Below are positions 50,142 through 52,289 of a DNA stretch of 64,000 nt, piece by piece (the first letter of the stretch is position 1; each line of letters begins with the position of its first letter). The translations under genes were made by a program, and so were the position numbers. The stretch covers positions 3,464-67,463 of the forward strand of contig CAZQTH010000001.1 of the NCBI GenBank assembly GCA_964596175.1. The letters run 5' to 3'. The notes under the pieces are model-generated. The model was not told where the DNA came from. It made no database searches and saw only the letters and a program-made list of their open reading frames with translations. This stretch comes from an uncultured Clostridium sp. (GTDB taxonomy: Bacteria > Bacillota > Clostridia > TANB77 > CAG-508).

Positions 50142-50455
50142 TTATGCACTTACTCCAACAAAGAATTGGTAAATAACTTGTGCAAATGCTGATGCTGCAA
50201 ATATTAGTGCTGCACCTACTATGTATGGTATAAACGTTTTCTTGTATTCTGCTTTCTCTTCTGCACTTCCCATCATGTATTTAATACCTAAAACTATTAA
50301 CACAATAACTGATAATACTATACCTACTGTTTGTAGTATTCCTACTATACTTTGTCCTACGTTTTGTATTTGTGTAGAACCACTTACGTTTGAGTTTCCT
50401 GTTATTTCACTTGGTGTAAGTGCAAGTACTGTTGCTGACATAGATACTACCATTA
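50142..50455. repeat. about 314-bp direct repeat copy A (near-identical to 50701..51014)
   Basis: one mismatch over about 314 bp covering the mature-pilin coding part; identity ends inside the signal-peptide codons. Confidence 0.85.
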
Positions 50456-50501
50456 GCATTACACATAAAGCACTTAATATTTTTATCATTTTTTTGTCCA
50501 T
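50142..50501 (-). CDS. VirB2/TrbC-like pilin-type protein, paralog 4 (signal peptide plus two-helix hydrophobic hairpin)
   Basis: cleavable-type signal peptide, mature region ATVLALTPSE...SIVGILQTVGIVLSVIVLIVLGI-KYMMGSAEEKAEYKKT-FIPYIVGAALIFAASAFAQVI (TM-loop-TM). Confidence 0.5.
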   Translation of the reverse strand: MDKKMIKILSALCVMLMVVSMSATVLALTPSEITGNSNVSGSTQIQNVGQSIVGILQTVGIVLSVIVLIVLGIKYMMGSAEEKAEYKKTFIPYIVGAALIFAASAFAQVIYQFFVGVSA

Positions 50502-50700
50502 ATTCTTTATTCCTCCTTTATTATAAGCTTTATAAAAACTTTAAAAAATATTAATATCTTAGCTTTAGACTAATTATAACATTTTTATTTATTTTTTTCA
50601 ATAGTATTCTCTAATTTTAGTAAAAACACGAATTTATGATATTTTTTATTCAAAAAAAAGGAGTATTTTGAATTTACTCCTTTTTCATATCTTTTCATTT

Positions 50701-51014
50701 TTATGCACTTACTCCAATAAAGAATTGGTAAATAACTTGTGCAAATGCTGATGCTGCAAATATTAGTGCTGCACCTACTATGTATGGTATAAACGTTTTC
50801 TTGTATTCTGCTTTCTCTTCTGCACTTCCCATCATGTATTTAATACCTAAAACTATTAACACAATAACTGATAATACTATACCTACTGTTTGTAGTATTC
50901 CTACTATACTTTGTCCTACGTTTTGTATTTGTGTAGAACCACTTACGTTTGAGTTTCCTGTTATTTCACTTGGTGTAAGTGCAAGTACTGTTGCTGACAT
51001 AGATACTATCACTA
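50701..51014. repeat. about 314-bp direct repeat copy B
   Basis: see copy A. Confidence 0.85.
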
Positions 51015-51060
51015 GCATTACTAACAAAGCACTCCATACTTTTAACATTTTTTTATTCAT
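50701..51060 (-). CDS. VirB2/TrbC-like pilin-type protein, paralog 3 (mature part identical to paralog 4)
   Basis: mature 97 aa identical to the 50142..50501 product except one V/I; signal peptide diverged. Confidence 0.5.
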   Translation of the reverse strand: MNKKMLKVWSALLVMLVIVSMSATVLALTPSEITGNSNVSGSTQIQNVGQSIVGILQTVGIVLSVIVLIVLGIKYMMGSAEEKAEYKKTFIPYIVGAALIFAASAFAQVIYQFFIGVSA

Positions 51061-51141
51061 ATTTTCATCCTCCTTTATTATGAATTTTATATATATAAAT
51101 TTTAAAAACTTAAAAACATTATTATTTAATATATCATTTTT

Positions 51142-51579
51142 TTATTCGTTAAGATTTTGTGAAATTGTATATATAAGTTGTGGTATTAAAGAGCCTGTAA
51201 ATAATAGAAATGCTCCTATTATGTATGGTATTAAAGATTTTTTATATTCCGCTTTTTCTTCTATACTACCCATCATATATTTAATACCAATTACTATCAA
51301 TACAGCCACTGAAATTATTGTTCCTACTATTTGTATTGCTGAAACTATTGTTCCTGCCATTGAAGTAATTCTACTCGAACCTGATGTATCATCTATATAA
51401 GAATTAAGATCACCTAAATCTGACTCAATACTAGTAGTTACCACTGAAAATCGTCCATCTGTGCTTTGTGACTGTGCTGCAAAATTTTCATTCCTAATTC
51501 CCATTATGCTTATAATAGATATTACTATAATTGCAATAATTTTTACATACCTTCTAAAATGGTAATGATTAATTTCCAT
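51142..51579 (-). CDS. VirB2/TrbC-like pilin-type protein, paralog 2 (divergent)
   Basis: start placed at MEINHYHF (ATG 51577-51579, GGAGGG RBS 8 nt upstream); C-terminal IVGTIISVAVLIVIGIKYMMGSIEEKAEYKKSLIPYIIGAFLLF matches the paralog motif. Confidence 0.5.
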   Translation of the reverse strand: MEINHYHFRRYVKIIAIIVISIISIMGIRNENFAAQSQSTDGRFSVVTTSIESDLGDLNSYIDDTSGSSRITSMAGTIVSAIQIVGTIISVAVLIVIGIKYMMGSIEEKAEYKKSLIPYIIGAFLLFTGSLIPQLIYTISQNLNE

Positions 51580-52289
51580 ATTCCAAACCCTCCAAATATA
51601 ATTACACAACCTACAACATACGCTACTAATAATTTCTTTGTTTCTGCTTTCTCTTCTACACTTGATAACATTAATTTTATTCCCATTATTCCTCCAACAA
51701 TAACTGCTACAACAATTCCTATTGTAAGTAATATATTATATATACTTGACGAAACATTTTGTAATGCATCTTGGTCATACTGAATATCTCCACCTGAACT
51801 TACAAAATCTTCTGCATCACTTATCATATCGTCTAAGCTTGATGAAGCTGTATTTCCACTATTTTGTCTTTGAGGCAGTTTATATATTGTAGAAGATCCA
51901 GAACTACTTGAACTACTTGAACTACTTGAGCTATCAGAATCATAATTTACAGTACTACTAGAATTATTGTTAAGTGCTAGAAGAACTAAATTAACCTGTG
52001 TATCTTGTTCTAATGTAACACCTACATATTCTACAAGATAGTTATTCAAAGTTGTTCTCCAAGCCTGTATTACTTCTGCACTCTCTGTTATTGTAAGAGT
52101 TGTTCCTAAACCTGAATCAGAATTTAGTTGGTATGTGCTATCAACATAAGATACAATTTCATCCCTATCAAAATTTATCTTTTCTGCATCTGAAGCTGCA
52201 TAGCTAGTTTTTTCAAAAGAGAATAGAGTAACTAGTAATATTATCATTAAAATTAATAATTTTTTCACTTTTAGAAATTTATTTACCAT
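51543..52289 (-). CDS. VirB2/TrbC-like pilin module fused to an about 150-aa N-terminal extracytoplasmic domain with poly-Ser linker (paralog 1)
   Basis: signal peptide; SSSSSSSSSSSGSS linker; C-terminal IVVAVIVGGIMGIKLMLSSVEEKAETKKLLVAYVVGCVIIF hairpin. Confidence 0.5.
   Translation of the reverse strand: MVNKFLKVKKLLILMIILLVTLFSFEKTSYAASDAEKINFDRDEIVSYVDSTYQLNSDSGLGTTLTITESAEVIQAWRTTLNNYLVEYVGVTLEQDTQVNLVLLALNNNSSSTVNYDSDSSSSSSSSSSSGSSTIYKLPQRQNSGNTASSSLDDMISDAEDFVSSGGDIQYDQDALQNVSSSIYNILLTIGIVVAVIVGGIMGIKLMLSSVEEKAETKKLLVAYVVGCVIIFGGFGIWKLIITILEGM

Follow-up and report, generated by a model that had tools for sequence, protein, structure and literature searches.

Do the type IV secretion systems (T4SSs) of Gram-positive bacteria possess pilins of the VirB2 type, and what would such a system do with four of them? 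The question is raised by a stretch of 64,000 nucleotides (nt), referred to below as the window, from an uncultured Clostridium sp. (assembly GCA_964596175.1, contig CAZQTH010000001.1, positions 3,464-67,463, forward strand; GTDB lineage Bacteria; Bacillota; Clostridia; TANB77; CAG-508), in which a first-pass annotation had placed four tandem VirB2/TrbC-like genes. According to a review of December 2025, Gram-positive T4SSs lack VirB2 and VirB5, the Patescibacteria excepted (PMC12857230), and a preprint of 2025 considers that VirB2-like proteins of Gram-positive bacteria have been overlooked for want of sequence similarity (10.64898/2025.12.18.695078). We consider it probable that the four genes encode VirB2/TrbC precursor pilins of a monoderm-type T4SS, and that this system is fixed in the chromosome, by the gene block at the replication origin, in a large clade of uncultured, endospore-forming, low-GC gut Clostridia.

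The genes are neighbouring open reading frames (ORFs) on the minus strand, placed and sized as annotated, with products of 248, 145, 119 and 119 amino acids (aa). From upstream to downstream they are listed here with the promoter-like site that precedes them; types 1 and 2 are two kinds of hairpin described further below.

52375..52403, minus strand: promoter-like site TTGAAA-17-TATAAT upstream of the 248-aa gene (11/12 consensus matches; a consensus match only)
51543..52289, minus strand: type-2 pilin, 248 aa (PF18895 28.4 bits, PF04956 25.1 bits)
51142..51579, minus strand: type-1 pilin, 145 aa from ATG 51579 (PF04956 32.8 bits, PF18895 35.5 bits)
50701..51060, minus strand: type-1 pilin, 119 aa, upstream copy (PF04956 49.8 bits, PF18895 39.0 bits; core nt 53-360 at 51008-50701)
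50142..50501, minus strand: type-1 pilin, 119 aa, downstream copy (PF04956 49.1 bits, PF18895 39.0 bits; core nt 53-360 at 50449-50142)

The longest ORF of the second gene (51142-51609) begins at TTG 51609 and would encode 155 aa; the ATG at 51579 has a GGAGG 9 nt upstream and was also chosen by independent gene calls on other assemblies. From this start the gene shares 37 nt with the 3' end of the 248-aa gene, and an overlap of the same length occurs in a related locus, L001 (related loci are cited by such numbers where they have to be told apart).

Hydropathy profiles give all four proteins an N-terminal, signal-like hydrophobic segment and two more hydrophobic segments, and AlphaFold2 models built with family alignments likewise bear out the signal peptide and the hairpin of two transmembrane (TM) helices that had been annotated. 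The 119-aa protein is modelled (predicted local distance difference test, pLDDT, 80) as a signal helix, a 14-residue linker and a helix-turn-helix of residues 42-77/80-116, and the 248-aa protein (pLDDT 67) as a signal helix, a helical N-domain, a disordered region (111-150), a short conserved helix and a hairpin of residues 173-208/211-247. Signal-peptidase sites, guessed by eye, are VLA/LT and SYA/AS, the latter in the 248-aa protein. The loop motif IKYMMGSxEEKAEYKK, which had been given for every product, is exact in three, but the 248-aa protein carries the variant IKLMLSSVEEKAETKK; across the array the charged hairpin loop reads EEKAE(Y/T)KK.

Assignment to the VirB2/TrbC family agrees with the Pfam profiles. 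All four proteins pass the gathering score of PF18895 (T4SS_pilin, 26.6 bits) and three pass that of PF04956 (TrbC/VirB2, 27.9 bits), the 248-aa protein falling slightly below the latter. In NCBIfam the pilins match weakly the "pilin-like conjugal transfer protein" of a Mycoplasma integrative and conjugative element (ICE). Homologues of the 119-aa protein form more than 3,200 clusters at 90% identity, none of them with a name or annotation; an exact-sequence look-up returned no record for the 119-aa proteins and found the 248-aa protein only on two short Logan contigs. A holin, which had been named as the competing family, was rejected, as the Pfam scan matched no holin family at E <= 0.1 whereas TrbC/VirB2 and T4SS_pilin were matched, and no phage genes lie around. 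What adjoins the array instead is a set of genes typical of T4SSs, in the following order downstream; the coupling protein, listed last, is encoded about 35 kb away.

49538..49909, minus strand: PrgI/VirB3-like membrane protein (PF12666 34.2 bits, gathering score 27), adjoining the array in 76 loci
48307..49548, minus strand: N-terminal VirB4-like protein (TraC-like/TrsD-like), 413 aa, matching positions 4-112 of the CD1110-family VirB4 model
46389..48359, minus strand: VirB4 ATPase, 656 aa (P-loop_TraG, DUF87, AAA_10; CD1110-family VirB4 2.4e-58)
43572..46373, minus strand: VirB6-like polytopic membrane protein, 933 aa (TM segments; weak pLS20_p028 family match)
42618..43445, minus strand: 275-aa protein of no recognised family, syntenic in 67 loci
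39034..42582, minus strand: VirB1-like cell-wall hydrolase, 1182 aa (Amidase_3, Phage_lysozyme2 and NlpC/P60), syntenic
37689..39074, minus strand: 461-aa single-TM protein, the final gene of the cluster (weak DUF4864 match only), syntenic
865..2938, minus strand: type IV coupling protein (T4CP), VirD4/TraG-like (T4SS-DNA_transf 6e-78)

The two VirB4 ORFs overlap by 53 nt, a layout found in most related loci and in a C. botulinum plasmid (L089, 9893-12866), and homologues of the N-terminal protein match PF26593 (TraC-like). The ATPase scores 198 bits against the CD1110-family model and 192 bits against that of the Mycoplasma-ICE family, both under the equivalog cut-offs, and is thus a relative of these families and not a member. 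Within the VirB6-like protein, residues 171-237 form an embedded pilin-like hairpin (PF18895, 32.7 bits), which the hairpin profile also matches in most orthologues and which could provide a seat for the stacking of free pilins. The 275-aa protein has no Pfam or PDB match, and PDB searches by sequence and profile with the VirB6-like, 275-aa and 461-aa proteins yielded nothing usable; that the 461-aa protein is VirB8-like is a guess. VirB4, a PrgI/VirB3-like protein, a VirB6-like protein and a VirB1-like hydrolase occur here together, and by its gene content the cluster appears to be a monoderm (MPF_FATA-like) T4SS, where the MPF_FATA placement of VirB4 reflects best model matches and not a phylogeny.

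Is such a cluster a resident of the chromosome or a passenger? A search for VirB4 relatives found at least 567 matching stretches in species-representative genomes, and the best 80 loci (VirB4 identity 79-90%) were compared. All come from uncultured gut Clostridia, Clostridium sp. or Bacillota metagenome-assembled genomes, from humans, rabbits, chickens, mice and goats. Their synteny map shows one and the same order of genes, beginning with the pilin array and ending with the 461-aa gene, and in more than 70 related loci the pilin genes lie directly upstream of the PrgI/VirB3-like, VirB4 and VirB6-like genes. Upstream of the array the window contains an AbiEii/DUF6922 pair, two tRNA-Ser genes, a 503-aa gene, DUF4446, parB, parA, rsmG, mnmG, mnmE and jag, of which jag-mnmE-mnmG-rsmG-parA-parB is the gene block beside the replication origin; parA/parB are also upstream in 32 of the 48 loci that have enough upstream sequence to be informative. 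The rest of the window holds housekeeping and sporulation genes (SpoIIR, YpeB, a SleB-like hydrolase, Germane). Median identities to the window are 85% for parA, 84% for mnmG and 82% for the VirB4 ATPase, falling to 61% for PrgI, 53-55% for the 119-aa pilins, 47% for the 145-aa pilin, 44% for the 248-aa pilin and 34-40% for the VirB6-like protein, the hydrolase and the 275-aa and 461-aa proteins, while the ratio of non-synonymous to synonymous substitution rates (dN/dS) for the pilin arrays is 0.41-0.45. By this profile the locus behaves as a conserved chromosomal trait with fast-evolving, envelope-exposed parts.

One might object that the cluster is an ordinary, possibly decaying ICE, whose pilins serve DNA self-transfer as in the T4SSs of Clostridium plasmids. 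The nearest plasmid relatives, from C. botulinum and C. beijerinckii, have VirB4s of 41.5-42.2% identity, likewise split into two ORFs, and a pilin-like gene ahead of the PrgI-like gene; the plasmid relative has, however, a single pilin gene and no array. A T4CP is present, but it is not encoded with the transfer genes and stands in a conserved housekeeping setting of its own (murF-ddl-dnaJ-orf170-T4CP) in all 31 related loci of at least 10 kb among those listed. Directly upstream of its array, L001 carries genes for an integrase, Rep and a methylase. In the window, the ORFs of at least 100 aa matched neither a relaxase nor an integrase family; no relaxase turned up among the coupling-protein neighbours searched in relatives, and no att-like repeats bound the cluster within the 64 kb. 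The similarities of T4SS and housekeeping genes are incongruent: L037 has a parB of 96% and a parA of 94% identity, yet a VirB4 of 81% and pilins of about 50%, whereas L001 and L004 have VirB4s of 92-94% (94% in L001) and 119-aa pilins of 75-80%, the parB of L004 being 87% identical. The discord of L037 with L001, L004 and L005 suggests either whole-locus exchange between species by recombination or strong diversifying selection. On the other side, different species share the parA/parB-side position, VirB4 is about as conserved as mnmG and parA, and the genes flanking the cluster are housekeeping genes. Searches of PLSDB plasmids with the pilin region by megablast and tblastn gave no match, and megablast with positions 39-64 kb matched solely the mnmG of a C. 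difficile record, so that this is not a known plasmid. We regard the ICE explanation as unlikely; the locus is a conserved chromosomal one, and not an evident plasmid or ICE.

The surroundings may contain a small insertion. On one side of the AbiEii/DUF6922 toxin-antitoxin pair (52682-53610) is tRNA-Ser(gct), at 53953-54042, and on the other, at 52605-52655, a 51-nt, 88% identical copy of the 3' half of this tRNA. The pair resembles a small island that entered at the tRNA and separates the pilin promoter from the origin-side genes; L013, L041, L050 and L053 have it at the same spot. A perfect 20-nt tandem repeat, TTTTTTAGATTTTTAACTCC (2.2 copies, 54252-54296), is located between the 503-aa gene and tRNA-Ser(tga).

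Why should there be several pilin genes? The first-pass annotation considered this unusual for a Gram-positive T4SS locus, but within this T4SS family it is the rule: of the 56 arrays whose upstream sequence is long enough, 40 contain three pilin genes, 13 four, one five and two a single gene, and up to six were counted in one incompletely sampled locus. When the hairpins are aligned to a profile they split into two deep types. Type 1, with the motif GIKYMxGSxEEKAEYKK, includes the 145-aa and 119-aa proteins, and type 2, with YNILL...GC...FG.FGIWK, includes the 248-aa protein; the two are homologous (hhalign 98.7%, E = 4e-16). The array patterns are 211, 121, 1211, 2211 and 2111, and in 51 of the 55 complete arrays one or two genes of type 2 stand together with two or three of type 1.

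The C-terminal half is conserved among type-2 proteins, while their N-domains are unrelated or absent and their lengths range from 124 to 439 aa. Type-2 genes have been duplicated recurrently (L001 7974-9512, L029 4521-7353, L050 4620-6874, L024 4418-6845), and in these pairs the C-terminal 110-130 residues are near-identical while the N-terminal ectodomains are unrelated, which looks like the swapping of modules in front of a constant pilin anchor. Type-1 duplications recur as well (L016, L036, L072), again with a near-identical C-terminal part and an N-terminal part that has diverged or been replaced.

The type-2 protein of the window follows this plan. The annotated architecture of N-terminal domain, serine linker and pilin hairpin stands: a signal peptide is followed by a small helical N-domain (aa 32-116), a Ser-rich linker (117-133), the conserved helix SLDDMISDAEDFV and the hairpin (173-247), and among homologues the C-terminal half is conserved and the N-terminal half variable. 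The linker had been described as a run of 15 serines; there are in fact 11 consecutive serines (residues 120-130) within a 17-residue stretch of D, S and G (117-133), and the run is encoded by a short repeat.

51901..51933, minus strand: 9-nt tandem repeat, 3.7 copies, encoding the poly-Ser run

Slippage at this repeat may vary the length of the run. The N-domain, which had been likened to a tip or adhesin module, found no relative other than itself at E <= 0.001 when searched with phmmer against 1.84 billion representative proteins, and no significant fold match, so that homology gives an adhesin role no support.

A 503-aa protein is encoded at 54320-55831 (minus strand), with about 10 TM segments and a soluble C-terminal domain. 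Its match to PMT_2 (GT-C type protein mannosyltransferases) is weak and below the cut-off (E = 0.0095), and orthologues lie between DUF4446 and the pilin array in L015, L017, L037, L060, L069 and L076. That it is a glycosyltransferase acting on the Ser-rich pilin linker is speculation.

The differences between the members invite another explanation, namely that the paralogues are alternative surface variants (antigenic, phage-receptor or target-specificity variants) and not subunits that assemble together. From species to species the hairpin hardly changes, in contrast to the exposed N-terminal mature segment and the C-terminal tail, which vary, and the type-2 duplicates of L001, L024, L029 and L050 carry unrelated ectodomains on a near-identical C-terminal half. 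The N-domain of the 248-aa protein is an orphan, and a role in variation has been proposed for the VirB2 paralogues of Bartonella/Anaplasma and for other arrays (PMC12102498). However, the two 119-aa genes encode the same mature protein (apart from one residue, see below) and so add no variation, and the presence of both hairpin types in nearly all complete arrays suggests distinct, complementary roles. Signals of inversion or cassette switching were not seen, in analyses not aimed at finding them. We therefore find a purely variant-generating array rather doubtful, and favour pilins of two types that would work together.

How did the two near-identical 119-aa genes arise? They differ at 12 of 360 nt, and 11 of these differences fall within nt 1-52 (P = 6e-9 for the clustering), the remaining one being at nt 343 (position 50159 in the downstream copy). 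The first 52 nt thus diverge by 21%, and the near-identical core comprises 308 nt (nt 53-360) with the one mismatch; the core had been put at about 314 bp, also with one mismatch. In codons 19-119 there are 0 synonymous differences over about 73 synonymous sites, as against 3 over 8.5 sites, together with 7 non-synonymous differences, in codons 1-18. Outside the genes the flanks cannot be aligned beyond the ribosome-binding site and the first few bases past the stop codon, and they carry separate signals.

50650..50686, minus strand: terminator-like hairpin and U-run after the upstream 119-aa gene (-12.2 kcal/mol, z = -3.6)
50573..50601, minus strand: promoter-like site TTGAAA-17-TG-TATAAT before the downstream 119-aa gene (11/12, extended -10 TG; a consensus match only)
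50089..50127, minus strand: terminator-like hairpin and U-run after the downstream 119-aa gene (-14.7 kcal/mol, z = -4.8)

The first of these hairpins was missed by the consensus scanner because its loop is 9 nt. A simple recent tandem duplication would have copied intergenic DNA as well, and the pattern therefore fits the conversion of an older pair of paralogues. Of the two processes originally put forward, gene conversion and very recent duplication, both compatible with a core free of synonymous change, the unrelated flanks lead us to favour gene conversion. It had been thought to act on the mature part only, and the signal-peptide codons have indeed diverged, but the identical tract already begins at codon 19, within the signal peptide, and not precisely at the mature N-terminus. 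With a conversion tract of this extent, both genes would yield the same mature pilin except for V/I at residue 115, and the likely effect is a higher dose of pilin. The pair is the mild end of the general pattern of a constant hairpin with a variable front end.

It is extremely unlikely that the pair is an assembly artefact, one gene written twice, even if the contig probably derives from a metagenome and short-read assemblers struggle with repeats of about 300 nt. The copies differ in their 5' ends, promoter regions and terminators, and comparable pairs exist in other species. Also, two independent assemblies from other sequencing runs stop inside the first 119-aa gene, one at nt 342, just ahead of the mismatch, and the other at nt 82, about 30 nt into the repeat. 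Breaks at repeat borders are expected of a real two-copy repeat and argue against an artefact.

Another unusual feature concerns the T4CP, which is encoded by two overlapping ORFs, 2456-2938 and 865-2478. The first ends in NVNVLVVGRFWFW followed by the stop codon, and the second, in the +1 frame, starts at the Walker A motif (L)DGSGSGKS, which places the junction at about 2450-2480. Were the C skipped in GTT GGA C GGT TCT, strand beta-1 (VLVVG) would run on into the P-loop; at 27% GC, CGG is presumably a rare codon. The split layout occurs in 76 of 77 related metagenome loci (L090-L169), and 14 junctions inspected share GTTGGACGG(T/A)TC(T/A)GGTTCTGGTAA. A conceptual +1 fusion lifts the Pfam T4CP match from 263 to 273 bits and moves the start of the TrwB domain from model position 76 to 16. 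The junction is a candidate for a programmed +1 ribosomal frameshift. Directly upstream of the T4CP gene lies a 170-aa protein (3233-3745, minus strand) without a Pfam match, which is kept at this place with 63-84% identity in all related loci examined and may be an accessory factor of the T4CP.

Several observations weigh against reading the array as pilins of a chromosomally fixed T4SS. Foldseek searches of the PDB with both pilin models returned nothing significant, the best hits being hairpins of the ATP synthase c-subunit (E ~1), and sequence and profile searches of the PDB with the pilins found no solved relative; because these searches were empty, the family assignment stands on Pfam profiles and gene context, and the link to structurally known pili on Pfam profiles alone. 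Among the cluster genes scanned there is neither a pilin-processing or cyclising (TraF-like) peptidase nor a VirB5-like tip protein. The further maturation known from RP4 and Ti, in which a TraF-like peptidase trims the C-terminus or cyclises the pilin, is not found throughout the TrbC/VirB2 family. About one third of the related loci are without parA/parB within the available sequence, the downstream DnaJ/BcrAD flank is recognisable in 12 of the 37 loci scored for it, and, since the similarities of T4SS and housekeeping genes disagree, the locus is not purely vertically inherited. The assignment of major and minor subunits given below derives from position, conservation and duplication only.

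A different view is that the hairpin proteins are membrane-resident parts of a translocon, or holin-like small membrane proteins, which never form an extracellular polymer. No pilus has ever been observed on a Gram-positive T4SS (10.64898/2025.12.18.695078), generic membrane hairpins are all that the fold search returned, and the hairpin within the VirB6-like protein indicates that such hairpins can be integral parts of a channel. In the pCF10 system, however, labelling data for PrgF, a VirB2-like protein needed for transfer that models as a pilus on VirB6, favour extrusion of the loop from the membrane (10.64898/2025.12.18.695078). The family matches, to TrbC/VirB2 and T4SS_pilin and not to holins, also speak against a membrane-resident role, and signal peptides, a promoter-like site before the downstream copy, a terminator-like hairpin after each 119-aa gene and the duplication itself fit an abundant structural subunit. 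We thus think it quite unlikely that these proteins remain in the membrane.

If they are pilins, as we think probable, a route of assembly can be proposed from what is known of VirB2-type pilins, PrgF of pCF10 (10.64898/2025.12.18.695078) and the Patescibacteria system (PMC12857230). The pre-pilins would be inserted via the Sec pathway, cut by signal peptidase and held in the membrane as hairpins with the EEKAE(Y/T)KK loop toward the cytoplasm. The VirB4 ATPase would then extract them for stacking on the VirB6-like platform, and the product may be a short pilus or a conduit through the wall, opened by the 1182-aa hydrolase, with the variable N- and C-terminal segments and the type-2 ectodomain pointing outward. 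The 119-aa protein is probably the major subunit, because it is the pilin nearest virB3, the best conserved and the one that is duplicated, flanked by a promoter-like site and a terminator-like hairpin of its own. The type-2 protein probably contributes a minor subunit on which a variable ectodomain is displayed.

We can tentatively go further, to a possibility that we hold to be less likely than its negation: a domesticated, relaxase-less, origin-proximal T4SS with a heteromeric pilus, of type-1 shaft and swappable type-2 ectodomain, which might be the Firmicute counterpart or even the source of the Patescibacteria system, might have as its function attachment to other cells or the exchange of macromolecules with other gut bacteria, and not the transfer of an element, and might obtain its T4CP through the programmed +1 frameshift. 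What is new here is the combination of VirB2-family pilins detectable by sequence, a conserved two-type array and a chromosomally fixed T4SS in a widespread Gram-positive gut clade. That pilins of Firmicutes match the classical VirB2/TrbC profile directly stands against the view that such pilins are absent from Gram-positive bacteria, and the locus bears on whether monoderm T4SSs build pili and on what pilin arrays do. As uncultured gut Clostridia of this kind have been tied to host phenotypes (PMC11680825), their surface filaments are also of practical interest.

How does the locus compare with known systems? In the literature searched we found no description of this Firmicute locus, and full-text mentions of PF18895/T4SS_pilin led only to a Patescibacteria study and a structural survey. 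A "conserved pilin" locus described for the gut order TANB77 (PMC11680825) was considered as a candidate for the same locus and rejected, that cluster being a Tad-type pilus. Both are conserved, pilus-related clusters of uncultured low-GC gut Clostridia and contain several small pilin-like genes, but the Tad cluster has TadZ/CpaE/CpaF/TadBC with Flp-type pilins (PMC11680825), which are not in the window.

VirB2 of Agrobacterium, TrbC of RP4 and TrwL of R388 belong to PF04956, whose gathering score three of the four window pilins exceed. In common they all have a long signal peptide, some 90 mature residues that include two hydrophobic helices, and genes located beside virB3/virB4. The window pilins differ in that no similarity to the solved pilin chains is detectable by sequence or Foldseek, and in that there is here no outer membrane, no VirB5, VirB7, VirB9 or VirB10 and no TraF-like cyclising peptidase seen. 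The VirB2 arrays of Bartonella/Anaplasma are similar in their tandem pilin amplification and variation within a T4SS locus, but belong to diderm, effector-translocating systems of intracellular pathogens; this comparison is by description only, as cited in PMC12102498.

Nearer in cell type are PrgF of pCF10 and the VirB2-like proteins of other Gram-positive plasmids, including C. botulinum pCLJ, which are likewise small two-helix hairpins with a short charged loop, encoded near virB6/virB4 of a monoderm T4SS, and about half of such plasmids carry several VirB2-like candidates (10.64898/2025.12.18.695078). Usually only one candidate per plasmid is reported to model as a pilus (10.64898/2025.12.18.695078), the systems are plasmid-borne with a relaxase, and the proteins are said to have almost no sequence similarity to VirB2, whereas the window pilins match the TrbC/VirB2 Pfam family directly; PrgF is compared here by its description. 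The gene order (pilin-like, PrgI-like, two-ORF VirB4, VirB6-like, hydrolase) is shared by C. botulinum pINGR16-02E1 (NZ_KT897276; VirB4 42%) and its relatives. Unlike the present locus it is a plasmid; its one pilin-like gene (138 aa) only just matches the hairpin profile (E = 0.0016), and it has no type-2 pilin.

The closest described analogue is the chromosomal T4SS of the Patescibacteria (candidate phyla radiation, CPR), exemplified by Southlakia epibionticum ML1, in which VirB2 arrays are essential (PMC12857230, PMC12102498). The hosts are different, an endospore-forming Firmicute here and an ultrasmall epibiont there, and so are some components: the window has a large VirB1-like hydrolase while most CPR loci are without VirB1, and it has two defined hairpin types and near-identical members, whereas identity within CPR arrays averages 25% and reaches at most 54%. 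Both systems are nevertheless chromosomal, often origin-proximal and without a relaxase nearby (compared with the description in PMC12102498), and both have tandem VirB2-like arrays (2-11 genes in CPR, 1-5 in the complete arrays here), a separate TrsD-like VirB4-N-terminal protein beside VirB4, PrgI/VirB3-like and VirB6-like genes, and a T4CP far from virB4. These parallels raise the question whether the "essential T4SS" of the Patescibacteria stands alone or belongs to a wider trend of domesticating conjugation machines.

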